From Chloroflexota bacterium (GTDB taxonomy: Bacteria > Chloroflexota > Anaerolineae > UBA1429): 64,000 bases of DNA. The notes below the pieces were generated by a model that was not told the DNA's origin, did no database searches, and was given only the letters and a program-made list of their open reading frames with translations. The first letter of the stretch is position 1. The number at the start of each line of letters is the position of its first letter. A program made the translations under genes and the position numbers. Positions 2,705 to 27,461 of this stretch are shown here, one piece after another. The stretch covers positions 18,645 through 82,644 of the forward strand of contig DAIPBO010000012.1 in assembly GCA_036774405.1 (NCBI GenBank). Direction: 5' to 3'.

Positions 2705-3415
2705 CTATGATGTCAAACACAACTGGCCTGTAGCGGCATCGAGCCTGCCAATGCCCCGCGATGTGGCCACGATCACCTCGCTCACCATGCCGAGGAATAG
2801 GCCATGTTCGACCACGCCAGGGATGGCATGCAGCGCAGCGGCGAGGGCCTGGGGCTCAAAGGGCTCGGCATAGCGGCAGTCGAGGATATAGTTGCCTTCG
2901 TCAGTGACATAGGGTTGGCCGTCACGCAGACGCAGTGTGGGCTCGCCGCCCGTGCGCGCCACAGCGTCGCGGGTGCGCTGCCAGCCAAAGCGCACCACCT
3001 CGACGGGCACGGGGCTCACGATGCCCAGGCGCGGCGAAAGCTTGCGGTCGTCGACGACGATGATTTGGCGTATGGTGCTGTAGGCGACGATCTTTTCGCG
3101 CAGCAAAAAGCCCCCCAGGCCTTTGATGACGTTCATCTGTGGATCGACCTCATCGGCGCCGTCGATGGTCAGGTCGACACGCGGCTGAGCGTCCAGGTCG
3201 GTCAGAGGGATGCCCAGGGCCTTGGCCAGTGTGGCAGTCTCGATCGAGGTGGGCACGCCCAGGATGTCATGCAGCTCGTGACGGCGCAGACGCTCGCCCA
3301 GGTGCAGCGTCGCAAAGCGCGCCGTAGAGCCACTGCCCAGCCCCACCACCATGCCGTCCTGCACCAATTCGGCGGCGCACACACCCACCTGCTGCTTTAG
3401 CGTGTCGATGTTCAT
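2705..3415 (-). CDS. rpiA: Ribose-5-phosphate isomerase A
   Basis: 236 aa. GLGSGST motif, DGADEV and KGxGG motifs typical of RpiA. Confidence 0.9.
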   Translation of the reverse strand: MNIDTLKQQVGVCAAELVQDGMVVGLGSGSTARFATLHLGERLRRHELHDILGVPTSIETATLAKALGIPLTDLDAQPRVDLTIDGADEVDPQMNVIKGLGGFLLREKIVAYSTIRQIIVVDDRKLSPRLGIVSPVPVEVVRFGWQRTRDAVARTGGEPTLRLRDGQPYVTDEGNYILDCRYAEPFEPQALAAALHAIPGVVEHGLFLGMVSEVIVATSRGIGRLDAATGQLCLTS

Positions 3416-3495: not shown

Positions 3496-3525
3496 TTGAC
3501 GCTCATCTCGCCAGACGGCTATAAT
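3496..3525 (+). promoter_or_regulatory. Sigma70-type promoter (TTGACG, 18-nt spacer, TATAAT) driving the CHAT-NTPase cassette
   Basis: TTGACG at 3496..3501 and TATAAT at 3520..3525. Followed by a leader with GAAGGAG RBS and the ATG at 3562. Confidence 0.5.
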
Positions 3526-3561
3526 CCGGCCCGAAGAGGGCTTACGAGTGAGAAGGAGCCG

Positions 3562-5841
3562 ATGCTTTATTTGAGCCTGGACCTGCGCGTCTCTGACTGG
3601 GACCCTGCCTCCCGGAGCGCTCTGGTCGAGGTGCTGAACTCGCCTGCTGGCGAGGCGCCACCGCAGCGTGTACGCCTCGAGATCGACCCGGCGCGGCAGG
3701 GCGAGCGGCTGCTTTACACCGAAGGCAACGCGCAGCGCCTCGGTGAGCAGCTCTGGCAGAGCATCATGGTGGGCGAGATTCGCGATGCCTGGAGCCGTAG
3801 CTATCAGCGCGCTATCGATCGCCGCCGCGGCCTACGCCTGCGCGTACACAGCGATGACTGGCGCTTGGCGCAGCTGCCCTGGGAGCTCGCTTATGATCCC
3901 GCGCGACAGGAATATCTGGTGTACGACCGTCGCTTGTCGGTGGTGCGCTACGCGCGCATACCCAGCCCGCAGCCGGAGCCTGTGGCAACCGGTCAGCTGC
4001 ACGTGCTGCTGGTGGCCGCCTCTCCTCGTGATCAGGCGCCGCTCGATTGGGAGCGAGAGATTGAGCTGCTGCAGATAGCCCTGCAAGAGCTGGTGGACGA
4101 GGGGCGCATTGTGCTGAGTGTGTGCGAGCACGCCACGGCGCAGCGGCTGCAAGACCGACTGATGGAGACCATGCCCGAGGTGGTGCACTATGTAGGGCAT
4201 GGCGAGTACGATGCCACGCGGCAGACTGGTGCGCTGCTGGTCGAGACCGCCAACGGCGAGTCGGCACGCCTAGAGGCCCATGCTGTGGCGCGCCTGCTGT
4301 GCCGCTATCGCACGCAACTGGTCTTTCTCAACGCCTGCGACACGGCCCGCGGGCAGGCCATGGGTCTGGCGGCGGCGCTGATGCGCGGCGACATGCCCGC
4401 AGTCGTGGCTATGCAGTGGCCCGTCAAAGACGATGCCGCCATGCAGTTTGGGCGGGCGTTCTATCGCGGCATCTCGCACGATCTGACGGTGGATGAGTGC
4501 ATGTCTGAGGGGCGCCTGGCCGTGAGCACCGCCGGCGGCGAGCCTGCCGACTGGGGAGCGCCGGTGCTGTTCATGCGCTCACTCTCGGGTAACCTGTGGG
4601 TGCCCAGCGGGCAGTCATCCGCCTCGCAGGCCGCAGGTGCATCTGTCGTGACGGCTACAACGCAACCGGCGGTCGTTGGGGGTGAGAGCCGCTTTCTCAC
4701 GGGCAGGCCTTTGCGCGCAGGCCAGGATGCCGGCCTGATGCTACGACGCGATGAGCTGGCGCGGATACTCAAGCGCGCGCGGCTGCCAGCCGTCTCGCAG
4801 TATATCGCTGTGCTGGGCTCGCAGTACAGCGGCAAGACCACACTGCTGTTGCAGGTCAAAGATGCGCTGCAGGCCGAGCAGGCCTGCCTGTACTGCGACC
4901 TGGGCGTGCTGCACGATGCTGATCTCACCACCTGTTGTCGCCACCTCGCCTTTGAAGTCGCGCAGCAACTTGGGGCCCGACTGACAGCCAGGCAGGGCGG
5001 GGCGCTGCGCCGTCTTTCGAGCAGGATACTTGGTCAGCCCGCAGTGAGCGCCAGTCTGCTGGCCGAGGAACAACTGGCGCGCGTGCAGACGCCCGAAGAG
5101 CTGGTGGGGGTGCTTGAGGCCCTGTCGGCAGCCAGCCCCAGCGCGCGCATCACGCTGCTGGTTGACCAGGTAGACCGCCTGCCCGAAGATGTGGCTGTGG
5201 CCCTGCTGGGGGCTCTGCGCAGCATGTTGTTGACGGCACGCTGCGGTGGCAGCCCTCTGGCCAAGTATTTGGTGGTGTTGGCGGGCTCGTTGCGCTTGCA
5301 GGGTTGGCTTAACAGGCGCAACTCGCAACCTGGCTCGTTCGAGCGGCTGTATCTGGGTGAACTCGATGCCTGGCAGGTGGCGGGCGCGCTGGGTCAGTTC
5401 AGCCGCCTGGGCGTGCCCGTCGACGAGCAAGCGCCGCGCCTGGTGCTCGAGGCGACCGGTGGCCACCCCTACCTGACCATGCGGCTGTGCGCCTGGCTCG
5501 AACGGCTGCAGCCGGCAAGCATAGACGCGTCTGCCATCGAAGACGCGGTGGCCAACATGCTGGCCTCGGATGGACACCTGGCCGAGACGGTGGAGCGTGT
5601 AATGGCCGATGCCGGCCTGCAGGCCAGCATGCAAGCGGTGTTGGCGGGTGAAAGCCTACGCTTTGTTCGCAGCGACGCTGCGCTCTCGGCGCTGGAGCTC
5701 ATCGGCGTCATCACGCCGACCACGCCTGTGCGTGTGCGCAGCCGCCTCTATGAGCTGGCGCTGCGCGCCAGGTTGCCCAGGGCCACGCCGGCCGCCAACA
5801 CTGTTGCGGCCACCATAGCCCCCAAAGAGGAGACGAGATGA
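3562..5841 (+). CDS. CHAT-domain (caspase-like His/Cys) protease fused to a STAND/AAA-type P-loop NTPase
   Basis: The N-terminal region has the LPWELAYDP motif typical of CHAT proteins. The caspase-fold core has His in EVVHYVGHGEYD and Cys in LVFLNACDTARG. The C-terminal half has Walker A GSQYSGKTT, Walker B ITLLVDQVDRL and a GxP-like TGGHPYL. Start is set at the ATG with GGAG RBS (3562) rather than the track's 3496. Confidence 0.75.
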   Translation: MLYLSLDLRVSDWDPASRSALVEVLNSPAGEAPPQRVRLEIDPARQGERLLYTEGNAQRLGEQLWQSIMVGEIRDAWSRSYQRAIDRRRGLRLRVHSDDWRLAQLPWELAYDPARQEYLVYDRRLSVVRYARIPSPQPEPVATGQLHVLLVAASPRDQAPLDWEREIELLQIALQELVDEGRIVLSVCEHATAQRLQDRLMETMPEVVHYVGHGEYDATRQTGALLVETANGESARLEAHAVARLLCRYRTQLVFLNACDTARGQAMGLAAALMRGDMPAVVAMQWPVKDDAAMQFGRAFYRGISHDLTVDECMSEGRLAVSTAGGEPADWGAPVLFMRSLSGNLWVPSGQSSASQAAGASVVTATTQPAVVGGESRFLTGRPLRAGQDAGLMLRRDELARILKRARLPAVSQYIAVLGSQYSGKTTLLLQVKDALQAEQACLYCDLGVLHDADLTTCCRHLAFEVAQQLGARLTARQGGALRRLSSRILGQPAVSASLLAEEQLARVQTPEELVGVLEALSAASPSARITLLVDQVDRLPEDVAVALLGALRSMLLTARCGGSPLAKYLVVLAGSLRLQGWLNRRNSQPGSFERLYLGELDAWQVAGALGQFSRLGVPVDEQAPRLVLEATGGHPYLTMRLCAWLERLQPASIDASAIEDAVANMLASDGHLAETVERVMADAGLQASMQAVLAGESLRFVRSDAALSALELIGVITPTTPVRVRSRLYELALRARLPRATPAANTVAATIAPKEETR

Positions 5842-6188
5842 AGACGCTCTGGACGCCACGCAGCATCTATCTGTACATGGTCTGCCTCATCACGCTGGTC
5901 ATGATGATTGTGGGCAGCGTCAACCTGATTAAAGCGGGTACTGAGATGGCCTACCCTCAACCGCGGCCCTATCCGCAGTATGCTATCAAAATGCCAGACG
6001 CAGAGCCCCTGGACGCCGAGGCCGAGGCACGCTTTTACGAGGAGCAGCAGGCGGCCGAACGCGAGTGGGCACGCCGCAATGCCGTTCTGTCGATGGTGGG
6101 TAACGGCGCCCTGCTGGTCATTGCGGCGCCTCTCTACCGCTATCACTGGCGACAGGTGCAGCGAGAGCGCGAGATGTCTCAAACCTGA
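5838..6188 (+). CDS. Small membrane protein (2 predicted TM helices), translationally coupled to the CHAT-NTPase gene
   Basis: ATGA start/stop overlap with the upstream gene. Two hydrophobic segments (IYLYMVCLITLVMMIVGSVNLI and AVLSMVGNGALLVIAAPLY) flank a charged, Glu/Arg-rich loop. Confidence 0.55.
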   Translation: MKTLWTPRSIYLYMVCLITLVMMIVGSVNLIKAGTEMAYPQPRPYPQYAIKMPDAEPLDAEAEARFYEEQQAAEREWARRNAVLSMVGNGALLVIAAPLYRYHWRQVQREREMSQT

Positions 6189-6258
6189 CCGCCTCTGGTT
6201 GACAGGCTGCTCCCTGTACCCTAGAATAACGGTCAAATCTCACACAGGAGCCACTATC

Positions 6259-6627
6259 TTGAAGAGGCCGTCGCTGGGGCTCGTACTGGTTGCCGTACTG
6301 CAGATCATTCCCATCGTCATCATGCCACTGGGCACTCTCAAAGGCATGGGCATTGAGGTGTGGACGCCGCTCGTGGCCTTGTTCGCTTTGCTGGGGGTGT
6401 CTCTGCTGCTGCGCCGTGGTTGGAGCCGCGTGGCCAGCATCTTTGTGCAGGGGTTCAACATCCTCGTGCGTCTGCTGATGGGTGTGAGCAATGTGGTGGC
6501 CTCTGATAAGGTGGGCACAGGCTTTAATGGCGAACTGACAGTGACGTTTGCGATCTCGATTCTGCTCTCGGCCGTCGTCCTCTACTACATCGACCAGCCC
6601 GACGTGCAGCTGCAGATGCAGAGCTGA
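6259..6627 (+). CDS. Small polytopic membrane protein (about 4 TM)
   Basis: TTG start 8 nt after AGGAG (6246..6250). Hydrophobic throughout. The track ORF 5980..6627 is longer, but upstream of 6259 it overlaps the previous gene out of frame. Confidence 0.5.
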   Translation: MKRPSLGLVLVAVLQIIPIVIMPLGTLKGMGIEVWTPLVALFALLGVSLLLRRGWSRVASIFVQGFNILVRLLMGVSNVVASDKVGTGFNGELTVTFAISILLSAVVLYYIDQPDVQLQMQS

Positions 6628-6649
6628 GCTCGATACCGCGCAAGACCAA

Positions 6650-6684
6650 GACGCCGGACCTGAGTCCGGCGTCTTTTCTTTGTT
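6650..6684 (+). terminator. Intrinsic terminator (gacgccggac / gtccggcgtc stem plus TTTTCTTTGTT) closing the CHAT cassette; shared with the convergent ABC permease gene
   Basis: Seen directly: 10-bp GC stem and a 3' U-tract. Confidence 0.8.
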
Positions 6685-6694
6685 CAGATTGCCG

Positions 6695-7960
6695 CTACTG
6701 CTTTTCGTACACCTGGCCCTCGGCCGCTGGTGCCTCGGCGCGGCCCACCACACCGGCGAGCACGATCATGGTGATGAGATAAGGCGCCATGCGCATGAAC
6801 TGCGATGGAATGGGCACGCGCAGAATCTGCATCTTGGCCTGGAAGGTGTCTGTGAACCCGAAAATCAGCGATGCACCAAAGGCGCCGAACGGGTCCCATT
6901 TGCCAAAGATCATCGCGGCCAGCCCGATAAAGCCTTTGCCCGAGGTCATCAACTCGTCAAAGCGGGGCACCGAGCCCAACACCAAGAACACCCCGCCCAG
7001 CCCGGCCACCATGCCCCCCAGCAGCACGTTGATGTAGCGCATGCGGAACACGTCGATGCCCAACGTATCAGCAGCACGGGGATGCTCGCCCACGGCCCGC
7101 GTGCGCAGCCCCCAACGAGTGTGGTAGAGCATCACGTGCAGCACAATGAGCAGCCCAAAGAGCAGATAGACGATCAGGTTGTTCTCAAAGAACACTGGCC
7201 CAAGGATGGGAATGCGCGATAGCACTGGCACCGGCCAGTTACTGAACTTGCCGGGGTTGTTGAGGTGCTGGTATTGCGTGAGGAACTTGGCGCTGATGAA
7301 ACTGGTGCCCCCCGTCGCCAGGATGTTGATGGCGGTGCCGCTGATGATCTGGTTCACCTTGTAGCGTATCGACAGTACGGCCAAGAGCGCCCCCAGCGCC
7401 CCTGAGGACAGCACAGCGGCCAGCAGGCCGACCCACATGCTGCCCGCCAGGCTGCCCACCAGCGCCGAGACCATGGCGGCCGTGAGCATCATGCCCTCGA
7501 TGGCGATGTTGACGATGCCCGAGCGCTCACAGAGGATGCCGCTCAGAGCGGCCAAGGCGATGGGCGTGGCGCGCTGAACGGCGGTCTCGAGGATGCCGAT
7601 CAGGTTCAGGCTCTGATCGCGTGCGGCCCATGTCAAAAAGCCCAGCACCAAGAGCCCTGCCACGAGCCCCAGCACCAGGTCTTGCGCTCGCCCAAAGCCC
7701 CGCACAAGCTGCACCACGCCCAGGGCCACCGCGACCAGCGCCATGGCATAGAGGCTGGCCAGCACCGGCAAGGTGACGTTGGGTATGGGCGTTGCAGCCG
7801 TCTGCCGGCCTGGGTTAAGGCCAAAGGTGGCCAGCTGCCCCGGGCTCGAAGAGCGCACGAAGAAAACATAGATGATCAGCCCCATGGCGATAAAGGTCAT
7901 ACCCAGCGCTCTGCTCCGCCGCTTGGCCTCGGGGTCGACGATCGTTACCACAGCGCTCAT
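6695..7960 (-). CDS. ABC transporter permease (BMP/nucleoside-type uptake system, second permease)
   Basis: 421-aa polytopic protein. Start overlaps the stop of the upstream permease gene. Family pattern of the YufQ/NupC-like permeases encoded next to BMP-family binding proteins. Confidence 0.85.
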   Translation of the reverse strand: MSAVVTIVDPEAKRRSRALGMTFIAMGLIIYVFFVRSSSPGQLATFGLNPGRQTAATPIPNVTLPVLASLYAMALVAVALGVVQLVRGFGRAQDLVLGLVAGLLVLGFLTWAARDQSLNLIGILETAVQRATPIALAALSGILCERSGIVNIAIEGMMLTAAMVSALVGSLAGSMWVGLLAAVLSSGALGALLAVLSIRYKVNQIISGTAINILATGGTSFISAKFLTQYQHLNNPGKFSNWPVPVLSRIPILGPVFFENNLIVYLLFGLLIVLHVMLYHTRWGLRTRAVGEHPRAADTLGIDVFRMRYINVLLGGMVAGLGGVFLVLGSVPRFDELMTSGKGFIGLAAMIFGKWDPFGAFGASLIFGFTDTFQAKMQILRVPIPSQFMRMAPYLITMIVLAGVVGRAEAPAAEGQVYEKQ

Positions 7961-9416
7961 GCCTGCACCCCCTCTACGATGTCGGCCTCTGGGGGCTGTT
8001 CTTGGGCGCGGCGCTGCTTGATGCGGTAAATAGCCCGGATGATCTCGGGAGCGGCGATAAAGATGATGATCATCGCCTGCAAGATGGAGATGATGTCGAT
8101 GGGGATCTGCGCCACTGACTGCATGCGCGTGGCCCCCGCACGCAGTGTACCAAAGAGCAGCGCCGCCAGCACAACCCCCAGTGGGTGGCTGCGCCCCAGC
8201 AGAGCCAATGCGATCGAATCAAACCCGTATCCCGCTGAAAAGGCATTGGGCATGTAGTAGATCAGGCCGGTGATGTCGTTGGCCCCCGCAAGGCCGGCCA
8301 GGCCACCGCTCAGGAACATGGCCAGCACCATGCTGCGCGTGAGGCTGATGCCCGCATAGCGGGCGGCGCTGGGGTTGGCGCCCACTGTGCGTAGCTCAAA
8401 GCCGATCGTAGTCTTGAACAACAGCCAGTAGACCAACAGGGCCATCACCAGCGCCAGAAAGAAGCCGGCATGGAAGCGGATATCGCCTCCGAAGAAGCGC
8501 GGCAGCCGAGCGCTGACCTCGATCTCGGGTGAGATCGGGCGAAAGCCGCCCGGTCGCATCATCGGCCCGTTGAGCAGCCAGTCGCTCAACGCAAAGGCGA
8601 TATAGTTCATCATGATGGTGTTGATGACCTCATGGCCGCCGGTCTTGGCCTTGAGCCAGCCCGGGACAGAGCCCCATAACCCACCGCCCACAATACCCGC
8701 CAGCAAAGTAAGCGGCAGGTGCACCCACAAGGGCAGGCCTTTGAGGCTGTAGCCCACGAACACCGACGTCAGGCCACCCACAAAGTACTGTCCTTCGGCA
8801 CCGATGTTGAACATGCCAGCCCGAAAGCCCAGCGCCACTGCCAGGCCCGTCAGGATGTAGGGCGTAGAGGTGACCAGGCTTTCAGAGAGCGGATAAAAGG
8901 CACGGTTCAGCAGTGAAGGATCGCCGCGCAACCAGGCGGCCAGGGCCTGGGCCATCTGCCTGGGGTTGCCGATCGAACCTTCGAACAGCGCCACATAGGC
9001 CACGCGCACGGCGCGCCACGCGGCCCTGAGGCCTACGGCGGGCTTTTGGAAAAAGGTGAAATGGATCGTCACCCCTGGCCCCAGCTCAGGGTAGAGGGCG
9101 CGGGCCTCGTCGAGGCCGATCTGGGTGGTGGCATCGCGCACATCGCCCACCACGCGCAGTTGCTTGCCCTTGACCTCGACGGCATCGCCGATGACAACCT
9201 CGTTGGGGTGCCTCCAGAGGGCCTCTTCGAGCGAGATCTCGGTCTCGGGGTTGGTAAAGGGCACGGCCACCTGTCTGGGGATGCGCGTGAACGCAGCGAT
9301 GACCTGCAAATCGCTGACGATGATCAGCAGGCCTCCCAGAATCAGAGCGGTGACAATGGCCAGGAGCGGCATCAGCAGCGCCTGCAGGCGCTCATCACGG
9401 TTGTGCGGTGACCGGC

Positions 9417-9420
<4 letters not shown>
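7957..9420 (-). CDS. ABC transporter permease (BMP/nucleoside-type uptake system, first permease, with N-terminal periplasmic loop)
   Basis: 487 aa. Start overlaps the ATPase stop. Confidence 0.85.
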
Positions 9421-10967
<1,547 letters not shown>

Positions 10968-11070
10968 GCTCTCCTCCACGGTGGCGGCACGGGCAATATG
11001 CATTCTGCGGGCATTCTACTCGCCGAGGGGGGCTTTGGGCAAGCTGTCTCCTCTTGGGTGGCACGCGCAG

Positions 11071-11104
11071 ACAGAAAAAGGGAGCGGGTTTAGACCCGCT
11101 CCCT
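11071..11104 (-). terminator. Intrinsic terminator downstream of the fused binding-protein gene (agggagcgggt / acccgctccct stem, U-tract on the minus strand)
   Basis: Seen directly. Confidence 0.65.
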
Positions 11105-11130
11105 TTCAGTGGCTGCTGGCTACAGGGGTG

Positions 11131-13461
11131 CTATTCGCGCCCGCGAGCAAGCGCCTCATTTGAAAGCTGCACGGCCTCATCCAGGGCGGTCTGGGCATCG
11201 GCGATGCCTTCGAACACCTTGGTCATGGCCTCTTCGGCGTAGGTGCGCATCTCTTGCTCGCCTGCAACGGCGGGGCCTGGCTGCGCAGCCGGCATGATGA
11301 CCTCGACCTGCTCTTTGACGATGGGGTTCTCGGCAAAGTAGTCGTCCAACAGGGCGGCTGCCGAAGCGCGTACGGGCATATAGCCAGAGGCGCTGCCCCA
11401 CTTGGCGGTCTGCTCGGTCGAGCTAAAGAACTTCATGAACAACCAGGCGGCCTTTTGCTTGGCCTCGGTCGTCTTGAACATCACCAGGCTGCCACCGTAT
11501 AGCACGGTGCCTGGCTTGTCGGGGTTCAACTGCGGCGGCAGCGTGTGGCCGTATTCCTTGACCAGATTGCCACTCTCTTCGACGGCCTGCTGGTAGTAGA
11601 ACGTGCCAGAGGTCGAGCCAAAGGTAAAGGCCACGTTCCCCTTGCCAAACTCGGCCTGGTCGGCGTACGACCCCTCGGGCTTGACGGCGGCGCCGGCGTC
11701 GATCAGGCGCTTCATCATCTCAAGCGTCTCGACGGCCTCGGCATCGTTAAAGATGGCCTCGGTCTGGTCGGCGTTGGTGCGAGCCGTGCCACGGCTCAAC
11801 AGCCAGCTGTCGAGCGTTGAAGCGTTCTCATAGTAGGCATAGCCGATTTTGCCTGTCTGTTCGGTGACGGCCAGGCACATCTCTTCGAACTCTGCCCAGG
11901 TCTTGGGCGGGGCGTCGTAGCCGGCCTCTTTCAAGAGATCGAGGTTATACCACATGCCCTCGGCGCTCTTGGCAAACGGGAAAGTATAGTACTTGTTGCC
12001 GTATGCGGGGAAGCGCCCCTCGGCCAGGTAGCCTGGGTAGATGTCGGACAGGTCTTCGGCGGTGAGGCCGAGCTCGGCGTCATTGATGTACGGATCCAGC
12101 TCTTGCACCACACCGGCCTTGAGATAGTCCGAGACCATCGAAGGATAGGACACGGCCAGATCGGGCGTGCCGCCGGCGGCGATGGCTGCCACGAGCTTTT
12201 TGTAGAGGCTGGTATAGTCGCCCTGGTAGGTGGCGATCACATTGATCTCGGGGTACTTGGACTCAAAGTCGGCGATGATCTCGTCGAGGAGCTCACCGCG
12301 GAAGCTGTCTGGCGCCTGGTTGTGCCAGAACACCAGGTTGACCGACTCGCCCAGCACCACGCCCGTCTCGACGCCAGTGGGGGCCTCGCCCCAGCCGGTC
12401 CAGACCTGCTTGGCGATGACCTGCTTGCGCAGCTCATCGACCTCGGCCTTGAGCTCAGCGGGGATGGCGTCTTCCATGGAGCCGGGTGCCAGCCCCACGC
12501 CGTTGTTGGCCAGGGTGCCCACGTAGGTGCCGCCGGTGAAGGTACCTTCGACCACCTGCTCGATCACACCCTGAACCGAGACGTCCATATTCTTGAGCAC
12601 CGAAGCGAGCACGACATCTGCATATTGCGGCGCCGTGAGGGTCCAGTCGGCGTCCACACCGATCATCATGCCACCGCGCTCTTGCAGCACGGCCGCAGTT
12701 CCGTTGCCCACAGGGCCTGCCACGGGCATGATGATGTCGGCGCCCTCGTCCATCAGGCTCTCGGCGGCGCGGCGACCATCGTCGGTGGACTCAAAGTTGC
12801 CCACGTAATAGTCGGTGCCGAGGACCTTGACGTTGGTGCCATGCACCTGGTTGTATTGCCACACACCCTGGGCAAAGCCATCCATAAAGATGGTCACCGA
12901 GGGGATTTCGATGCCGCCAAAGGTGCCCACCACGCCGGTCTTGGTCATGCCCGCGGCGAGGTAGCCAGCCAGGAAGGTGGCCTGATCGGTGGCGTAGGTG
13001 AGGCCCAGCACGTTGGGCATCGTCTCGTCATACGCAAAGTCGACGATGGCGAACTTGGCATCTGGGTTGGCCTTGGCAAAGTTGGCCGTATCCTCGCCCA
13101 GCAGATAGCCCACCGTGATGATCAGGTCGGAGCCTTGCTGCAGGTACTCGGTGATATTCTTGGCATAGTCGGTCTGCTGCTGCGATTCGAGATAGGTACC
13201 TTCTACGCCAAACTGCTCGATAGCGTCTTGGACGCCCTTCCAAGAGGTCTGGTTAAACGACAGGTCGTCTACGCCGCCCATGTCGGTCACCAGGCCCACC
13301 TTGACAACCTCAGGCTCTGGTGTAGCAGCAGGGGCCTCAGCCTCCGGCTTGGCCGTCGGCGCTGCAGGCACCGGCGTTGGCGTGGGCTGAGTGCAGCCGC
13401 TAAGCACCATCGCTAGCGCCAGCAGCACACCCAGAGCAGCGAAAAGTCTGGTGCGCATCAT
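11131..13461 (-). CDS. Lipoprotein: BMP-family (PnrA-like, nucleoside-binding) substrate-binding domain fused to a family-1 extracellular solute-binding domain
   Basis: Signal peptide with lipobox (LSGC) and a Pro/Ala/Thr linker. Residues ~60-380 are BMP-like (VGLVTDMGGVDDLSFNQ..., GVDAD). Residues ~400-776 are SBP_bac_1-like (LVFWHN, GTPDLA, YNLDLLKEAG, PKTWAEF, AWLFMKF). Start is at the second ATG, 4 nt after GAGGAGG. Confidence 0.8.
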   Translation of the reverse strand: MMRTRLFAALGVLLALAMVLSGCTQPTPTPVPAAPTAKPEAEAPAATPEPEVVKVGLVTDMGGVDDLSFNQTSWKGVQDAIEQFGVEGTYLESQQQTDYAKNITEYLQQGSDLIITVGYLLGEDTANFAKANPDAKFAIVDFAYDETMPNVLGLTYATDQATFLAGYLAAGMTKTGVVGTFGGIEIPSVTIFMDGFAQGVWQYNQVHGTNVKVLGTDYYVGNFESTDDGRRAAESLMDEGADIIMPVAGPVGNGTAAVLQERGGMMIGVDADWTLTAPQYADVVLASVLKNMDVSVQGVIEQVVEGTFTGGTYVGTLANNGVGLAPGSMEDAIPAELKAEVDELRKQVIAKQVWTGWGEAPTGVETGVVLGESVNLVFWHNQAPDSFRGELLDEIIADFESKYPEINVIATYQGDYTSLYKKLVAAIAAGGTPDLAVSYPSMVSDYLKAGVVQELDPYINDAELGLTAEDLSDIYPGYLAEGRFPAYGNKYYTFPFAKSAEGMWYNLDLLKEAGYDAPPKTWAEFEEMCLAVTEQTGKIGYAYYENASTLDSWLLSRGTARTNADQTEAIFNDAEAVETLEMMKRLIDAGAAVKPEGSYADQAEFGKGNVAFTFGSTSGTFYYQQAVEESGNLVKEYGHTLPPQLNPDKPGTVLYGGSLVMFKTTEAKQKAAWLFMKFFSSTEQTAKWGSASGYMPVRASAAALLDDYFAENPIVKEQVEVIMPAAQPGPAVAGEQEMRTYAEEAMTKVFEGIADAQTALDEAVQLSNEALARGRE

Positions 13462-13625
13462 ATCCTCCTCTTTGGGTCTCAATCATCTGGGGAGCGTCTC
13501 GCTCCAACCCTGTGCATTATACTCCCGTCCAGGGTGTATGCAAGGCGTGAGGGTGCCTGAAGGTGCTGATTGTTGGCCAGCGCTGAACCGTGCTAGAATC
13601 GCGCCAGATCATAGACCGAGGTAGG

Positions 13626-15176
13626 ATGCTGCTTCCCCTGCTTCCTGCAATGTTGGCTGTGCTGTCAGTGGGGGCCTGGTATGCCGTCAGGCGTAGTGGC
13701 CAGGCAACCTGGGCCCGACGGTCATACCTGGGGGCCAATGCGGCGGTGCTGATAGTGGCGTTGCTGCTGCCCAGTGCCGAGGCTACGCTGGTGCCGGGCG
13801 GCATGTCTGCGGCCAGGCTTGAGCTGGCGTGGGATGGCGCCTCGCGTTTGGGCGCGGCGGTGTTGCTGTTGGCCACGCTGGCCCATCAGGTTACACCGCG
13901 TGAGGATCGTCGCATGGCGCCCGAGGCGCTGTTGGTGACGGTGTCGCTGGCCTGCCTGGCGGCGGTCAACGCGCAGGCGCTGGCGCTGTCGGCGGGCTTG
14001 CTATGTATTGCCATTGTGTGGGTCGAGGGCGCCTTGCCGGCCGGCTCGCGCAGCCCGTTCGCCGTCTTTGGCCTTGTGTCCATGTTGGCGGCATTGACAC
14101 TGCTGGGGCTGATAGCGGCTGGGTCGTTGCGGCTGGCACAGGGGTTGACGACGCCTCGCTGGGTGGTTGGCGCGGCCGTATTTGGAGTGGGCTTTGGCGG
14201 GTTATTGCTGGGCTACCCCGCTTTGCGCTGGCCAACGATGGCGGCCTGCACGGTCACCGCGGCGCATTTGCTGCAGCGGCTACCTGGCCCTGTGACCAGC
14301 AGCCCCGCAACCCTGACCCTGTCTCTTGTGGTGGGGGGGCTGGCGGTGCTCATTGGCGGGCTCTCGACAGCGCTGTGGGGGCCTCGCGGGCGCGCTCTCG
14401 ATGCCCTCTATGGGCTGACCTTTGGCGTGGCCTGGTTGGCCGCGGTCCTCGAGGGCGACCCAGGCCATGGCAGCGCGGTGGTGGCGCTGGTGGGCGCCGT
14501 GCTCGCCTATTCGGCGCTGGTGGCGCTGGAGCGCTCAGAGGGCGTGGGCTGGTACCGGCTGCCCAGCATTATCGCCGTGGGCGCGCTGGCGGGGCTGTTG
14601 CCCGGCGGGCTGCTGGTGGCGCGCTGGCGGGTGCTCGCCGCTAGCCTCTCGTTTGGCGATGGCTGGCTGGTGTTCTGGCAGGTGGTTGCCGGCCTGCTGG
14701 CCTGCTGGGTGACTGCACTGATCGCCCTGCCATGGGTCAGTACGCGTGACGTTTCGATGCCCCCGAGAGACTGGGTTGCCTGGGGTTTGGGGGCTATGCT
14801 TGCGTTGCTCTCTCTCGCTTTGGGTGTGGCACCCTTTGTGGTGTTACCGAGCCTGGGCTGGTTCGGTGGCGAAATGCAGGGGGCCGTATTGTGGGGCCTG
14901 TCGTTGGCGCTACTACCTGCTCTGCTTGGGCTCGGGCTGGCCTTTTGGCCCGCTGCGGTGCGGGCGCAGGCGCGCACCAGCCGCTGGCGCGAACGCGTGC
15001 GCCCGGTCTGGCAGGGCTCATGGGAGGGTGCTGTGCTGTGGCTCGACACGGCGCAGCAGCAGATAGCTGAGCGGCTCTATGGGCTAGCGCAGGTGGTCGA
15101 AGAGCGCCTGCTGATGGCCTGGGGCTTGCTGTGTGCGCTGGCGCTGCTGTTGGTGGCGCTTGAGGCCGGCCTATGA
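13626..15176 (+). CDS. Polytopic membrane protein (about 14 TM), first of three translationally coupled membrane proteins
   Basis: Ala/Leu/Gly/Trp-rich hydrophobic ORF. Start is the ATG after GAGGTAGG; the track's GTG at 13590 overlaps a TAGAAT -10-like box. Confidence 0.5.
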   Translation: MLLPLLPAMLAVLSVGAWYAVRRSGQATWARRSYLGANAAVLIVALLLPSAEATLVPGGMSAARLELAWDGASRLGAAVLLLATLAHQVTPREDRRMAPEALLVTVSLACLAAVNAQALALSAGLLCIAIVWVEGALPAGSRSPFAVFGLVSMLAALTLLGLIAAGSLRLAQGLTTPRWVVGAAVFGVGFGGLLLGYPALRWPTMAACTVTAAHLLQRLPGPVTSSPATLTLSLVVGGLAVLIGGLSTALWGPRGRALDALYGLTFGVAWLAAVLEGDPGHGSAVVALVGAVLAYSALVALERSEGVGWYRLPSIIAVGALAGLLPGGLLVARWRVLAASLSFGDGWLVFWQVVAGLLACWVTALIALPWVSTRDVSMPPRDWVAWGLGAMLALLSLALGVAPFVVLPSLGWFGGEMQGAVLWGLSLALLPALLGLGLAFWPAAVRAQARTSRWRERVRPVWQGSWEGAVLWLDTAQQQIAERLYGLAQVVEERLLMAWGLLCALALLLVALEAGL

Positions 15177-15790
15177 ACATCAGTATGCTGACCACCACCC
15201 AACTTGCGCTGCTCTTGGGGCTTGCTACGGCCCTCGTGGCGGTGACGGCACGCCGAGCAGCGGTGGTGGGTCTGGCCATCCAATACACGCTGCGTCTGCT
15301 GATGGTGGGGCCGCTGCTCTTGCGGCCGGTGCTCTACGGTCAGGTGGCAGTAGCCCTGGCGGCACTGATGATTCTCTTTCTCTCGGCGAGCTCGTTGGCG
15401 CACGTCCAGCGGCAGCGGGTTGTTGGTGGGGTCAGTCCTCTGGTGCGCATGGGGGGGCTCTATGGGCTCTTTAGCATGGCGCTGGCGGCTTTTGTGGCGC
15501 TCGGCCTGTACCGCTCGTTCCCTCTGCCGGGGCTTTCGGCTCAGGTGACGCTTGGCTGCTACTGGTTGCTGCTGGCTGGCCTGCTGCTGATCGTCATCGA
15601 GCCAACCGTGCTGGGCCAGGGCATGGCCGCGGTGACGGCGCTGAATGGCTTTCAGATGGCCTTTCTCACCCTCGACAACGGCCTGCTGATGATCGCACTG
15701 CTCAGCCTGCTCGAGATCGGCCTGGTGCTGACCGTCGCGGTGCTGTCAGAGCAGCAGCTAGAGCAGCTGGCCGAGGCAGAGGAGGGGTGA
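15173..15790 (+). CDS. Membrane protein (about 6 TM), second of the coupled trio
   Basis: ATGA overlap with the upstream gene. Hydrophobic. Confidence 0.5.
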   Translation: MNISMLTTTQLALLLGLATALVAVTARRAAVVGLAIQYTLRLLMVGPLLLRPVLYGQVAVALAALMILFLSASSLAHVQRQRVVGGVSPLVRMGGLYGLFSMALAAFVALGLYRSFPLPGLSAQVTLGCYWLLLAGLLLIVIEPTVLGQGMAAVTALNGFQMAFLTLDNGLLMIALLSLLEIGLVLTVAVLSEQQLEQLAEAEEG

Positions 15791-17097
15791 TGCCGCTCAC
15801 CGTATGGCTGGCTGTGCCGTTTGTGGGCGCGCTGCTGCTTTGGCCGGTGCGCCGGGCGCGTCAGGTCGCGGCGCCTGTGGCAGCCTTGATCTACCTGGCG
15901 CTGGCCGTCACGGCCCCCATGGTAGCCCGCAGCGCGCCGATCGATCTGCTGGGGCGCTCGCTGAACTTGAGCGCGGCCCACGCTCCCTATGTCTGTTTTC
16001 TGGCCGTGGGGTTGGCGTTGCTGATGGCCGGTGGCGCCTTTGTGCAAGAGAGTGCGTTGGTGTGGCCTGGCTCACTGGGAACCTTTGGTTTTCTGGTGGC
16101 GGCTCTTTGCGCTGGCAGCGCCCAACTGGCCGGTGCCATGTTGAGCATCGCTGTGATCGGCGTGGCTTTTTGCCTGCTGGCGCCCAACACGAGCGAGCTG
16201 ACCATGCGCACGGTGATTGTGCTGTTGTGCGGCACACTGATGTTGCTGCTGGCCGGCTGGACGGTGGAGGCCTCGCGTCTAGAGCATCCGCTGTCGGTTG
16301 GTGCCATCGGGCGGCCGGCAGCCCTTTTCGGCATGGCGTTGCTGCTGGGGCTGTTCCCCTTTGGGTTCTGGGCGCCGCCGCTCGGTCGCGTCGAACGGCC
16401 AACGGGGGCTTTTCTGGCGGTGTGCGCGCTGGGCGTCATTGCCTCGCTGCGCATGAGCGAGCTGAGCGGTTTGGCGGGGCGAGAGCTCTTGCCCATTGTG
16501 CTGCGGTGGGGTGGGCTGCTGACCTTTTGCTTTGGCGCAGTGGGCGCGCTGTTGCCACGGCGCCTGTGCGCTGTGGTAGGCTATGCCGCCATGGCCGACC
16601 TTGGGGTGGCGGCTCTGGCCATGGGCGCGGCGCCGCTCGATGGTGTAGACCTGGCGGCGCAGCATCTGGCCTATCGCGCGGTGGCCTGCGCGGCGTTGTG
16701 GGTAGCGGCCCGCGTGCTCTCCAAGTGCTTTGGGTCTGATGATGTACACGCGCTGAACGGCGCCTTTAGCCGCGCCCCTCTGACCTTGACGGCCGTTCTG
16801 TTGGCCGGCATGTCGCTTTCGGGCCTCCCCCCCATGGCGGGTTTTGCCAGCCGTAATGCCATTCTGGGGCTGACCATGACGAACCCCTGGTGGTCATCTC
16901 TGTGGGCCATGGGCACGCTGGGGCCAGTGTGGGGCCTGGCGCGTATCGTCATTGCCTCGTGGGGGCCAACGCCGCCTCCGGGGAGCCGTCGTGAGCCGGT
17001 CTGGCTGGGCGTGCTGTTGCTGGCGATGACCCTCTTCTTGTTGGTAGCGGGCGTGCTGCCCAACGTGATCGCCTGGATGCAGGGGCTGGCCAGCTAG
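15787..17097 (+). CDS. Membrane protein with complex I/Mrp antiporter-like (NuoN/NuoM-type) signature
   Basis: GTGATG overlap with the upstream gene. LSGLPPMAGFASR resembles the GIPPLAGFFSK motif of NuoL/M/N antiporter subunits, and GYAAMADLG resembles the AYSSIAHMG region. Confidence 0.5.
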   Translation: MMPLTVWLAVPFVGALLLWPVRRARQVAAPVAALIYLALAVTAPMVARSAPIDLLGRSLNLSAAHAPYVCFLAVGLALLMAGGAFVQESALVWPGSLGTFGFLVAALCAGSAQLAGAMLSIAVIGVAFCLLAPNTSELTMRTVIVLLCGTLMLLLAGWTVEASRLEHPLSVGAIGRPAALFGMALLLGLFPFGFWAPPLGRVERPTGAFLAVCALGVIASLRMSELSGLAGRELLPIVLRWGGLLTFCFGAVGALLPRRLCAVVGYAAMADLGVAALAMGAAPLDGVDLAAQHLAYRAVACAALWVAARVLSKCFGSDDVHALNGAFSRAPLTLTAVLLAGMSLSGLPPMAGFASRNAILGLTMTNPWWSSLWAMGTLGPVWGLARIVIASWGPTPPPGSRREPVWLGVLLLAMTLFLLVAGVLPNVIAWMQGLAS

Positions 17098-22896: not shown

Positions 22897-24213
22897 TCAG
22901 CCAGCGAAAAAGATGCGCTGTATGTCCTCACGGGTGATCTTGCCCGAGGCCAGCCGGTTGCGCAGCTCGTTCATCTGCTGTACCAGCGGGATGGCCTCGA
23001 GGGGGCTGCGATGTTCTTCAAAGGGAGGCAACTCGGCTGGCAGCTCGACGGCATCGCCGTGCAGCAGCGCCCTGACGGCATCGATGGCCTTGCCGGTCTG
23101 CACAAGCCCGTTGTGATTTTGTTCGACATAGTAGGTGGCGACGCCCGGCACGCGTGCAGACCAGAGCGGCACCTGCTCGTCGCCCGAGTCGGGACCGGTG
23201 TCATGGCGTTCGGGCAGCAGACGCAGCTCACCATCGTCGGTCTGACGACGCACGGCAGCAACGGTCTCATAGTGGCAGCCAGCGATCTCAATCTGCTCGA
23301 TATCGGGTTGGCAGCCCAGCACCAACTCATGAAAGCGCCTGGCCTCGCTCAGCAGGTCGCCGCGCACCGGTGGCCCCTGCCATTCGGTCTCGTCGTAGGG
23401 GTTCCAGTCCAGCGGGTAGGGGCGATCGCCCATGAACAGCTCGGGTGGCGGTGGCAAGAGCTGGTAGGCCGAGGGCAGGCCGAGGGCAAAGCCGAGCACA
23501 TCGTTAGCGGGGTTGAGGTGCTTGATGATGCGTGCGGGCCGCGCTTCACCGGCAAAGAGCAGGGCAGCCTCAGCGGCGCCCTGCAACGGTGTGCCCAGCA
23601 TGATCACCCGTTCGACGCGTCGCTCGGCTTCATGGGGATGTTTGGCCAGATAGGCACGGGCCACCAGCCCGCCCATACTATGGCACACCAGCGTAAAGCG
23701 TCGCTCGGGCTCGGTCAAAGACCAGCGCTCGAGCGAGTGGGCGAGCGTATCGGCGGTCCTGAGCACGCTGTGTCGCCAGTCGTAGGGGAACTCGTAGAGG
23801 CGCGTCTCGCGAGCAAGCGCCAGAACGATCTGTAGATACGACAGCTTCTCTACCCCGAGTGGCACAATGTCGACATCGGGCACGCGGTCGTCGACGCCAT
23901 CGTCGTCCAGATCAAGCAGGTTGAGGTGACCCTCGAGCAGCAGCCGTGGGTTGGGCCACAGCAGCGCGCTGATCCCACGAATGCTCGTCAGTTGTGAGCC
24001 CATGATACCAGGGATGAACACCGTCGCATTGCGCGGGTGTTCGGTCGAGGGGCGGTCGAGCAGGGCGCGTATCTCGGCAGTCTCGCGCTCGCTCATCACC
24101 AACTCCATCCACAGGTTGGGCTTGATCATAGCCAGTCCACGGCTCAGATGCTCCGCCGGGATTGACTCTAGCTGAGCGATGACCCACTGAGCGATGCTAT
24201 TGGCAATGTCCAT
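22897..24213 (-). CDS. LCAT-like (lecithin:cholesterol acyltransferase family) alpha/beta-hydrolase / putative lipase
   Basis: 438 aa. YDWR motif (EFPYDWRHS), nucleophile elbow CHSMGG, and a downstream acid/His region. The start ATG at 24211..24213 nearly overlaps the stop of the upstream STAND gene (24216). Confidence 0.75.
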   Translation of the reverse strand: MDIANSIAQWVIAQLESIPAEHLSRGLAMIKPNLWMELVMSERETAEIRALLDRPSTEHPRNATVFIPGIMGSQLTSIRGISALLWPNPRLLLEGHLNLLDLDDDGVDDRVPDVDIVPLGVEKLSYLQIVLALARETRLYEFPYDWRHSVLRTADTLAHSLERWSLTEPERRFTLVCHSMGGLVARAYLAKHPHEAERRVERVIMLGTPLQGAAEAALLFAGEARPARIIKHLNPANDVLGFALGLPSAYQLLPPPPELFMGDRPYPLDWNPYDETEWQGPPVRGDLLSEARRFHELVLGCQPDIEQIEIAGCHYETVAAVRRQTDDGELRLLPERHDTGPDSGDEQVPLWSARVPGVATYYVEQNHNGLVQTGKAIDAVRALLHGDAVELPAELPPFEEHRSPLEAIPLVQQMNELRNRLASGKITREDIQRIFFAG

Positions 24214-27200: not shown

Positions 27201-27461
27201 GGCGCCCTCAGGCCAGGCCGGCCACGCCTCGCCAGAAGGCACCAGCAGGCAGAGCATGTCGATCACCGGCTCTGGCGTCTGCAAACGTTTGGCCAGGGCC
27301 TCTCTGCTTGCCGGGCGTAGCCACTCAATCTCGATCTGGCCGCCCTGCGCCTCAGCGGCAGAGAGCACGGCCGCAGCGCGATCATAGGCCAGCAGATCGG
27401 CTTGAGATGAGACGTCGCTCGAGGCGATCAACAGGCGCAATGACGGGCGAGGTTGAATCAC
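24216..27461 (-). CDS. STAND NTPase: N-terminal CHAT-like (dyad-less) domain, NB-ARC-type P-loop domain, C-terminal TPR-like helical repeats
   Basis: 1081 aa. Walker A VVCLHGPVGHGKTALA, Walker B LLLWDNVE, and a GxP-like DSPLVL. The C-terminal ~600 aa are Ala/Leu-rich repeats. Confidence 0.8.
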   Translation of the reverse strand: MIQPRPSLRLLIASSDVSSQADLLAYDRAAAVLSAAEAQGGQIEIEWLRPASREALAKRLQTPEPVIDMLCLLVPSGEAWPAWPEGAAALTEMLAGIEVGLVIWVSGEAFLPDELATLWLAADMAPSALQGALQTLFSELLAGTTLGLACESVQRDLAPNTSAARWALGAAEGRPLANPQPEASGVARVVPFTQDDLRPAWQRLALQPTPGGLPSSPDAPFVGRAFQRAALEAALLTPEARVVCLHGPVGHGKTALAAATARWLMRTATFDRIVYTNLYGGLLPDALVHDLTWQLVGPDATPGTPETSARLHEALAQSRTLLLWDNVEAAFSRDDLNYDDDARSRLLALARELAHSPGCRLLLIADGASMPAELASLEPVAQVLPALTNQEGVALLQAYAGASTEEAAAWSQQLGDSPLVLRCAAARLRSSSDEALRAAIERTLPHAVQQASRWTERGGELALDLLLNDLSPDERLAVNGLGLYPQGFLEPTTLRTLGLEPEPWSRLKALLAAAGLLSQQPVQGLTLSRISMHPALAGHLARQATLRQRQALAQPYANSTLGLLGWLPRGEARAPGLARRLLRLELANIVQSVALAIETDELNLAAELVQAAGSALVTAGLGDTVAALRRRIDRATATAVPAEGPLSRAAVRFVLGQAERLLQSGRVDQAAPMLQGLIKRITADKGQTYAAPEATLDQGLALKLFAMVLTASLRPDVVITTLRQAIALLSQARSLPEAPLAEAQAWRQLGEALLLARQPEAAQEAAQRGLELARRLDDLELVGLLQAQLAGAMAAHEETDAALLQFEQAAESLSKASAWPALCSLWEQVAALQEARRHDAPAAIEALGHGLAVASAAELPSVRGNLLLRRARLHARLEQGELTVADLHAAVEAFREANQPQSVVGALHALAEHYLSQSEPAAAAVHATRALEISQAGGQNAVAWEIYHLLQRVAHASGDAEQEAAWRQRTQRAFALSPAGAAVVQQWFGLIRAIAEACRGAALSAETAEAVEKLEADAQGRALAHALWAVLGGARGPEAYSELDHVAALVVRTVLHGIDHPEIFERQPTGNTTAQGAASGG

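Follow-up and report, generated by a model that had tools for sequence, protein, structure and literature searches.

Do a protease, a nucleotide switch and small membrane proteins that are encoded side by side make up one defence system? This question is raised by the locus at positions 3496 to 6684 of a 64,000-nucleotide stretch of a Chloroflexota bacterium genome (assembly GCA_036774405.1, contig DAIPBO010000012.1; we call this whole stretch "the window"), where a gene whose predicted product joins a CHAT caspase-fold protease to a P-loop nucleoside triphosphatase (NTPase) is followed by two genes for small proteins with two and four predicted transmembrane (TM) helices. A reading made by a model from the letters and their open reading frames (the sequence-only reading) had taken the three genes for a self-contained cassette with the grammar of a conflict system. 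Our analysis of the locus and its relatives favours on balance a different answer, one autonomous gene plus neighbours and not a three-gene system. The features of the locus are as follows.

3496-3525, forward strand: sigma-70-type promoter of the CHAT-NTPase gene, TTGACG-N18-TATAAT, 11/12 match to consensus
3553-3558, forward strand: ribosome-binding site AAGGAG, 3 nucleotides (nt) 5' of the ATG, by direct reading of the sequence
3562-5841, forward strand: CHAT-AAA_35 NTPase gene, 759 amino acids, cytosolic product (open reading frame list, Pfam, alignment and hydropathy scan)
3733-4569, forward strand: CHAT protease domain (clan CD, caspase fold), residues 58-336, Pfam CHAT PF12770
4750-5838, forward strand: predicted AAA_35/STAND-like P-loop NTPase with helical lid and winged-helix-like C-terminal region, residues 397-759
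4816-4842, forward strand: Walker A motif GSQYSGKTT, residues 419-427, with G424, K425, T426 and T427 invariant
5155-5181, forward strand: Walker B motif LLVDQVDRL, residues 532-540, with D535 invariant
5458-5475, forward strand: GxP-type lid motif GGHPYL, residues 633-638, with GHPYL invariant
5838-6188, forward strand: DUF5671 protein with two TM helices, 116 amino acids, its start overlapping the CHAT-NTPase stop (ATGA)
6199-6227, forward strand: separate promoter of the four-TM-helix (4-TM) gene, TTGACA-N17-TAGAAT, 11/12 match
6259-6627, forward strand: 4-TM protein, TTG start, 122 amino acids, own transcription unit, no Pfam family
6648-6675, no strand assigned: intrinsic-terminator hairpin (12-bp stem with 8 GC pairs, then a T-run) between the convergent 4-TM and ABC permease genes

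The large gene begins with the ATG at 3562, and its frame is open to the TGA at 5839-5841 in the raw sequence and in the open reading frame (ORF) list. A start at the TTG at 3496, which would give a 781-residue ORF, was rejected because that TTG is the beginning of the promoter -35 hexamer and all orthologues start at MxYLSxDLR (ATG). The protein carries the label "CHAT domain-containing protein" at NCBI, and a hydropathy scan found no TM segment in it. Its ratio of nonsynonymous to synonymous substitution rates (dN/dS), measured against the 82% identical orthologue L012, is 0.155, which indicates purifying selection along the whole protein; the same comparison gives 0.21 for the DUF5671 gene and 0.18 for the 4-TM gene, and therefore all three ORFs are genuine protein-coding genes.

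The Pfam CHAT model (PF12770) matches residues 58-336 with 116.3 bits (cut-off 24; E = 2.3e-33) over 286 of its 289 profile positions. The predicted catalytic His213 is encoded at 4198-4200 and Cys259 at 4336-4338. In 14 aligned orthologues, which reach down to 37% identity, LPWEL (residues 105-109), H209/H213 in EVVHYVGHGEYD and C259 in LNAC are all invariant; H213 sits in HYVGHG, and the HxxGH and LNAC surroundings are likewise unchanged in all 14. Judged by its sequence the dyad is catalytically intact, and the protein is a predicted peptidase. An AlphaFold2 model was built on the orthologue alignment (mean predicted local distance difference test score, pLDDT, 73.5) and compared by Foldseek with the PDB. 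The N-terminal half of the model matched the caspase fold of the SAVED-CHAT filament (8tl0, E 2e-10), of Csx29 (8eex) and of the CHAT-containing anti-sigma factor DdvA (8rot).

The best match of the modelled C-terminal half is the Walker-type ATPase PABY2304 (2qen, target TM-score 0.63), together with Orc1/Cdc6, RuvB and clamp-loader subunits; the STAND proteins RPP1, Avs3 and Avs4 are weaker matches. The C-terminal region of the model is helical with a short hairpin, and with 2qen and Orc1/Cdc6 it appears to share a core-lid-winged-helix layout, at modest TM-scores. The NTPase family is most easily recognized through relatives. In the window protein AAA_16 and AAA_22 give sub-threshold Pfam matches over residues 397-555 and AAA_35 gives none at E ≤ 1, but orthologues with 62-65% identity carry PF14516 (AAA_35), and when residues 380-759 alone were searched against 1.84 billion representatives (356 hits), AAA_35 was present in 78 of the 80 best non-orthologous relatives, with E values down to 4e-36. 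The GHP of the lid motif is nearly invariant across these 80. What is joined to the NTPase varies greatly among them: CHAT (8), Trans_reg_C (6), TIR (5), C14 caspase (2), EAD7 (2), nucleotide cyclase (2), SpoIIE (2), SIR2, trypsin, SEFIR and protein kinase. PMC7159879 describes effector swapping of this kind for the NTP-dependent conflict systems found in multicellular bacteria. Members of the AAA_35 family carry swapped death or effector domains, and the protease-plus-switch grammar is therefore genuine.

These results support the description of the large protein as a CHAT caspase-fold protease with a conserved dyad, joined to a STAND-like P-loop NTPase, and here the sequence-only reading has held up well. 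The 759-residue fusion that it proposed is borne out by the ORF check, by the 116-bit CHAT match (the Pfam search puts CHAT well over threshold and AAA_16/AAA_22 below theirs) and by Foldseek, whose matches also agree, at the level of a model, with the caspase fold expected of the N-terminal half. The LPWEL, His and Cys that it had taken as signs of an active CHAT domain are present and invariant in the 14 orthologues, and its Walker A, Walker B and GxP-like GGHPYL motifs are all in place, with GKTT, D535 and GHPYL invariant across the orthologues.

Two peculiarities of the window's own clade lie in this module. Its five members have LLVDQVD at Walker B where all orthologues of about 40% identity have LLLDEVG, and a new Asp follows three residues later; a change from Glu to Gln after the Walker B Asp is a classic hydrolysis-dead substitution in AAA+ proteins. 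The clade also has an insertion of about 22 residues between Walker A and Walker B, with low pLDDT at 479-493. Pfam matched no repeat-type sensor (TPR, WD40 or LRR) in the window protein, which ends about 100 residues past the lid, where longer orthologues have a nuclease-fold domain instead. Literature searches on PF14516, DUF5671 and PF18920 found no papers, and a search for CHAT with AAA_35 returned unrelated string matches only.

Are the two small genes regular partners of this protein? One genome per GTDB species was scanned with two conserved peptide patterns, which gave 37 full-length orthologues at one locus per genome record; the relatives are all metagenome-assembled genome (MAG) or metagenome sequences. 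The small genes were scored with hidden Markov models over six-frame ORFs at these 37 loci, which have at least 1 kb of downstream sequence. The gene maps use a greedy longest-ORF set in which some small genes are mis-called; the set of all stop-to-stop ORFs is swamped by antisense and shadow ORFs in this high-GC DNA. The 4-TM gene lies directly downstream of the CHAT-NTPase gene at 14 of the 37 loci and is not adjacent at the other 23, and DUF5671 is found within the flank at six and is missing from it at 31. All three genes occur together only in the window, L002-L005 and L012. Relatives with 62-65% identity have the order rpiA, CHAT-NTPase, (TruD), (DUF5671), 4-TM, ABC permeases. At about 40% identity the 4-TM gene is still adjacent in L006-L008 and L011, but not in L009. 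Among the other loci, 13 have a divergent gene for a secreted protein of about 500 residues together with sugar and oxidoreductase genes, and three have TruD directly downstream. The divergent upstream neighbour of about 500 residues was considered as a partner and rejected: apart from a signal peptide it is soluble, it matches no Pfam family, and it co-occurs with sugar-metabolism genes. The TruD-type tRNA pseudouridine synthase gene stands directly 3' of the CHAT-NTPase gene in L005 (5403-6560), L014 and L018, which belong to different clades; in L005 its start overlaps the CHAT gene stop, and it separates that gene from the small ORFs.

The 4-TM gene, for its part, also lives elsewhere, and as a rule it is the lead gene of a membrane-protein cluster. 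A search with its product found about 36 clusters, all of 118-128 residues, and the few with a source name are Chloroflexi MAGs. It is present without a CHAT gene in L069, L071 and L072. In L069 it heads a cluster of genes for 549-residue, 216-residue and Proton_antipo_M proteins that is followed by RuvA/RuvC, in L071 it adjoins a pair encoding 547 and 223 residues, and its neighbours in L072/L073 are a dehydrogenase gene and rsmE, one on each side. In assembly GCA_019873625.1 the 4-TM gene (L069) and the CHAT-NTPase gene (L018, followed by TruD) are on different contigs. In a neighbour-joining tree of 40 orthologues, which carries no support values, those loci where the 4-TM gene is retained fall into two clades, one at either end, so the adjacency would be ancestral and lost repeatedly while the CHAT-NTPase gene was kept.

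The promoters point the same way. The hexamers of TTGACG-N18-TATAAT are found 59-97 nt 5' of the CHAT-NTPase start at 18 of 21 orthologous loci, and TTGACA-N16-17-TA(T/G/C)AAT stands 5' of the 4-TM gene at all 18 loci, including three that have no CHAT gene. Since the 4-TM ORF has its own promoter at every one of these loci, with or without the CHAT gene, it is a separate transcription unit. At both promoters the hexamers are kept and the spacers have diverged; their conservation across Anaerolineae loci at about 40% protein identity is a clean phylogenetic footprint, and shows that promoters of this Chloroflexi lineage follow a consensus like that of E. coli. A consensus scan found the strong first promoter and the intrinsic terminator that the sequence-only reading had described; the internal promoter it had not mentioned. 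The scan found no terminator between the three ORFs, and transcripts from the 3496 promoter could read through into the 4-TM gene.

The small proteins themselves are much as they had been described. The ATG at 5838-5840 of the 116-residue ORF overlaps the TGA at 5839-5841, and the product matches DUF5671 (31.9 bits against a cut-off of 28.4) and has two predicted TM helices, N-in/C-in by charge, with a predicted cytosolic tail that ends ...YRYHWRQVQREREMSQT. Both the overlap and the two helices were recovered from the sequence and the hydropathy scan. The second protein has the four hydrophobic helices that had been expected, and is 122, not 123, residues long; its conserved core is FVQGFNIIVRLL, and its C-terminal tail PDVQLQMQ (...IDQPDVQLQMQS) is strongly conserved and probably cytosolic. 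PADLOC and NCBIfam gave no defence-family match for either small ORF (PGF-CTERM and Btc22 are sub-threshold chance matches).

The stop/start overlap, which might seem to tie DUF5671 to the large gene, has a simpler candidate explanation. Ancestral orthologues of about 900 residues (for example P0011) have a C-terminal domain with a restriction-endonuclease fold that lacks conserved catalytic residues, and protein length mapped on the neighbour-joining tree indicates that it was lost independently at least three times. One member of the window clade, L002, keeps it, and there the DUF5671 start lies 73 nt past the CHAT-NTPase stop; for this reason we read the ATGA overlap in the window and L012 as probably a by-product of the deletion of the C-terminal domain and not as an ancient coupling.

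The order of the surrounding genes accounts for the rest of the picture. The neighbours concerned are these.

2705-3415, reverse strand: rpiA, divergent from the CHAT-NTPase gene, its conserved upstream neighbour in two distant orthologue clades
6695-13482, reverse strand: Bmp-type ABC transporter operon of four genes, between the 4-TM gene and its usual downstream neighbours
13590-17097, forward strand: membrane-protein cluster (528-residue, 205-residue and 436-residue Proton_antipo_M proteins), which directly follows the 4-TM gene in other lineages
13590-15176, forward strand: multi-TM protein, 528 amino acids
15173-15790, forward strand: 6-TM protein, 205 amino acids, with an NGFQ...L motif that it shares, by eye only, with a 213-residue protein of L006
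15787-17097, forward strand: Proton_antipo_M protein, 436 amino acids
17097-18173, reverse strand: RuvA and RuvC, downstream of the membrane cluster

The flanks are rpiA and a Bmp-type ABC operon; the sequence-only reading had named rpiA and a nucleoside ABC transporter. rpiA adjoins the CHAT-NTPase gene in two clades at opposite ends of the tree, and the 146-nt region between the two genes holds promoters only. L006, L011 and L069 have no ABC operon here, and in them the membrane cluster comes straight after the 4-TM gene; the 4-TM/membrane-cluster order is the same in L006/L007 (L006:8308-12471), L011 and L069 (L069:6001-10116), and RuvA/RuvC lie downstream both in the window and in distant loci. 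The block after the ABC operon in the window corresponds to the one that L006, L011 and L069 have after the 4-TM gene, and so the ancestral order by sequence comparison would be purM-rpiA, CHAT-NTPase, (DUF5671), 4-TM, membrane cluster, RuvA RuvC, with the ABC operon apparently inserted after the 4-TM gene in the window clade. For the window this synteny is based on gene order, gene sizes and the Proton_antipo_M and RuvA/RuvC matches; BLASTP of its 528-residue protein against the protein of about 540 residues that follows the 4-TM gene elsewhere was not significant. The apparent cassette of protease, switch and small TM effectors is an artefact of this conserved gene order.

Several other observations were made in these neighbourhoods. 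Near RuvA/RuvC, several Anaerolineae have a conserved, unannotated cluster composed of the 4-TM protein of about 122 residues, a protein of about 540 residues with at least 11 TM helices, a 6-TM protein of about 210 residues and Proton_antipo_M (the window copy is split by the ABC operon), and this cluster could encode an Mrp/Nuo-like antiporter that has novel subunits. In the ABC operon, the substrate-binding protein (11131-13482, reverse strand; 783 residues) is a fusion that carries two different solute-binding modules, Bmp/PnrA-like (63-353) and SBP_bac_1/8 (398-722), in one lipoprotein-like chain. Upstream of the CHAT-NTPase gene in L008, a 592-residue call (L008:3923-5701, reverse strand) combines Rib_5-P_isom_A with a response-regulator receiver and GGDEF; it may be a true but unusual fusion of rpiA, or else an artefact of gene calling or assembly. 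Further along the window a 1081-residue ORF with no Pfam match at E ≤ 1e-5 (24216-27461, reverse strand) lies directly upstream, on the same strand, of an ORF for a 438-residue alpha/beta-hydrolase that is LCAT/PGAP1-like (22897-24213, reverse strand).

The CHAT-NTPase gene itself behaves as a part of the chromosomal backbone. All 37 full-length orthologues are from Anaerolineae/Anaerolineales/Chloroflexota MAGs, and these MAGs occur in anaerobic-digester communities. Its identity to the window copy tracks that of its flanks: 82% against 86% for purM in the closest case, 62-65% against 72-78% for rpiA/purM, and 40% against 57-65% in the most distant. Its GC content (0.65-0.67) is like that of the flanks (0.60-0.69), and there are no flanking direct or inverted repeats of note, no Rfam match and no viral-contig relatives, which is why explanations by a mobile element or an RNA were rejected. 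The neighbourhoods (purM, rpiA, permeases, ABC transporters, aro genes, TruD, RuvA/RuvC) hold no mobile or defence genes. Flank-tracking divergence, normal GC, and the lack of repeats and of viral relatives together point to a vertically inherited, lineage-core gene of one Anaerolineae lineage of filamentous Chloroflexi, single-copy in the genomes in which it was found, and not part of a mobile defence island.

The reading that we prefer, with modest confidence, is that of a caspase-like protease that is autonomous and NTP-gated, with an AAA_35/STAND-like module as its basis, and whose gene has become part of the lineage core. If it works as STAND and apoptosome-type switches do, an ADP-bound NTPase would keep the protein monomeric until a trigger brought about nucleotide exchange and oligomerisation. 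The CHAT domains, now crowded together, would gain activity and cut one or more cytosolic targets in trans, and this proteolysis would commit the cell to death or growth arrest, or else remove a regulator. As there is no repeat-type sensor domain, the trigger would have to be read by the NTPase/winged-helix region or by a partner protein.

Several points weigh against this reading. The AlphaFold2 model is of moderate confidence, and the loop that contains Cys259 (259-264) is at pLDDT below 50. No Pfam NTPase model reaches threshold in the window protein (AAA_16 has 23.8 bits against a cut-off of 32.6), and with DQ instead of DE after the Walker B Asp in the window clade, hydrolysis could be slow or absent. 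Activation by oligomerisation is inferred from other STAND and caspase systems. Copy number and absence, as they come from two peptide patterns and one genome per species, are lower-bound statements. Finally, the ATGA overlap with DUF5671 in the window and L012 is compatible with some functional tie of the small genes to the CHAT gene, as is the persistence of the adjacency of the CHAT and 4-TM genes in two distant clades through rearrangements on both sides.

What such a protease does for the cell is a separate matter. The lineage-core, syntenic position and the lack of defence neighbours make us lean to an endogenous role; our tentative first choice, by a logic like that of HetF, is regulated proteolysis in the filament or cell death as part of its development. 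The effector swapping, the nuclease-fold remnant and the company kept by related CHAT domains lean instead to an origin in immunity or cell death, and a single-gene anti-phage or abortive-infection sensor comes second as a possible role; what probability remains goes to other roles.

The anti-phage idea is also the strongest of the rivals when it is spelled out in full, with the logic of Avs or bNACHT: the NTPase/winged-helix region would recognize a phage protein or nucleic acid, the protein would oligomerise, and its CHAT domain would then degrade host or phage proteins, aborting the infection and so protecting the filament. TIR, SIR2, caspase, trypsin and EAD7 are among the effectors swapped on AAA_35, and the nearest CHAT domains outside the orthologue family are joined to FGE-sulfatase (PF03781), WD40, TPR, NACHT and EAD-family domains; according to PMC7159879, FGS, EAD, repeat and STAND domains accompany caspase-like peptidases in the conflict systems that occur in multicellular bacteria. 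PADLOC finds domain-level matches to SAVED_CHAT (E 2.4e-11) and BovA (E 6.5e-7), ancestral orthologues have a C-terminal restriction-endonuclease-fold domain, and bacterial Apaf-1 orthologues with N-terminal caspase-like proteases have been reported (PMC13581612). On the other hand, the protein has no repeat or other recognizable sensor domain; it is strictly lineage-restricted, in housekeeping synteny down to 40% identity, with no defence or mobile genes nearby; purifying selection extends along its whole length; conserved catalytic residues are missing from the nuclease-fold domain, which was lost three times or more; and the Avs5 models are unmatched (E 0.06-0.16). We regard this version as possible but unlikely.

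A more speculative proposal joins the two lines of thought: the protein would be a domesticated death-switch of conflict-system ancestry that has become a core, vertically inherited gene of a lineage of filamentous Chloroflexi. It would control programmed cell death or division decisions in the filament, and the adjacent DUF5671 and 4-TM proteins might inform it of the state of the membrane. This proposal is improbable in our estimate; if it is true, apoptosome-like developmental proteolysis would have originated, separately from HetF, in a third phylum of multicellular bacteria.

The three-gene abortive-infection cassette fares worse. It would be one operon (3496-6675) whose NTPase senses infection and switches on the CHAT protease, after which the 2-TM and 4-TM proteins, perhaps once cleaved, permeabilise the membrane. 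The ATGA overlap, the lack of a detected terminator between the ORFs, the 14 loci in two distant clades where the 4-TM gene stays adjacent while both flanks change, its conserved and probably cytosolic tail, and the precedent of the membrane-associated EACC1-caspase system (PMC7159879) all speak for it. Its difficulties are that neither small gene accompanies most orthologues, that the 4-TM gene has its own conserved promoter even at loci without the CHAT gene, that L069, L071 and L072 have it by itself or with a membrane cluster, that GCA_019873625.1 has it on another contig than the CHAT-NTPase gene, that TruD intervenes in L005, that in the window 7 kb and the ABC operon separate the 4-TM gene from its customary partners downstream, and that no PADLOC model is matched by either small ORF. 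The gene-neighbourhood data have largely refuted this reading, which we now consider very improbable: the small TM ORFs are not conserved neighbours and the setting is a housekeeping one, an outcome that the sequence-only reading had itself named as counting against the self-contained cassette. Of the conflict-system grammar that it saw, the protease plus NTPase switch stands, through the effector swapping of AAA_35, and the small TM effectors do not. The three-gene set should not be catalogued as a new defence system.

Least probable of all is a catalytically silent scaffold, in which CHAT would be an interaction platform (as in DdvA and in inactive vWA-MoxR caspase domains) and the NTPase/winged-helix part a nucleotide-dependent regulator, Orc/Cdc6-like DNA binder or transcription factor; the Foldseek matches to DdvA (8rot) and to Orc1/Cdc6 with its winged helix, the Trans_reg_C DNA-binding domains in six of the 80 nearest AAA_35 relatives, the DQ for DE at Walker B and the inactivity of about 70% of effector-position caspase domains in vWA components (PMC7159879) are in its favour, but Pfam matched no DNA-binding domain model, and a His/Cys dyad, HxxGH and LNAC invariant in 14 of 14 aligned orthologues are the opposite of the inactive-caspase pattern.

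How, then, does the autonomous protease that we favour compare with systems already described? In the EACC1-caspase system (System 4 of Kaur et al. 2020, PMC7159879) an N-terminal caspase-superfamily protease with variable C-terminal domains, STAND NTPases among them, has a small TM partner. That partner, EACC1, has one TM helix, and its gene, found mostly in actinobacteria, precedes the caspase gene on the 5' side, whereas the 5' neighbour in the window is the divergent rpiA and the small TM genes are 3', encode two and four TM helices and are not conserved partners; for want of a 5' single-TM gene, membership of this system was rejected. Avs (a STAND NTPase with an effector) and Borvo (a CHAT protein alone) share the single-polypeptide design with the window protein, which differs in having neither a terminase/portal-type sensor domain nor a defence-island context. 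Membership of Avs5/AVAST was rejected (NF041814, E 0.16, and PDLC02170, E 0.063, align only about 50 residues round the P-loop), as was that of Borvo, BovA giving 26.7 bits over 136 residues at profile positions 529-667 of 711, in the CHAT portion only.

The closest solved CHAT folds, SAVED-CHAT (8tl0) and the TPR-CHAT Csx29 of Craspase (8eex), are proteases that are switched on by oligomerisation or by ligand-driven conformational change. There the switch is a SAVED domain that binds cyclic oligonucleotides, or the Cas7-11 RNA complex; in the window protein it would be the fused NTPase. These proteins sit in CRISPR/CBASS-type loci, none of which is present at the window locus or in the neighbourhoods examined, and SAVED-CHAT membership was rejected because the PADLOC match covers only the CHAT portion (profile positions 62-270 of 498).

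A different kind of likeness links the window protein to HetF. This CHAT protease of Anabaena cleaves PatU3 after Arg117, which licenses cell division and heterocyst commitment (PMC9457339). The two have in common an active CHAT protease (in the window protein, a predicted one) in a filamentous multicellular bacterium, encoded by a chromosomal, vertically inherited gene and serving, in the role that we tentatively put first, an endogenous regulatory logic. HetF differs in having no AAA_35 NTPase and in coming from another phylum, and no PatU3-type partner was identified. The HetF model NF045509 is the best NCBIfam match, but with 89 bits against a cut-off of 1200 and with only the CHAT domain aligned (profile positions 59-383 of 836) family membership was rejected.

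The nearest parallel in architecture is offered by the caspase-like/STAND proteins (PMC7159879), among them the bacterial Apaf-1 orthologues (PMC13581612), with which the window protein shares an N-terminal caspase-fold effector, a P-loop NTPase with a GxP-type lid motif and, as far as the model predicts it, a winged-helix-like region. They too are found in multicellular or filamentous bacteria, and the NTPase family of the window protein likewise swaps its effectors. Bacteria have their counterpart of apoptosome logic in fusions of caspase-like proteases with STAND-type NTPases, hardly any of which has been the subject of experiments. The window protein is set apart from these relatives by its NTPase, which appears to be of the AAA_35/archaeal ATPase_2-like clade (best fold 2qen) and not of the Apaf-1/NB-ARC type, by having no beta-propeller, TPR or other repeat sensor, and by its evolutionary behaviour, as its gene is a vertical backbone gene and not a sporadic one. 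The AAA_35 clade is uncharacterised, and for proteins of this kind a stable, vertically inherited backbone gene is unusual; it would therefore offer a clean case in which to ask whether apoptosome-like logic in filamentous bacteria serves immunity or endogenous control of cell fate.

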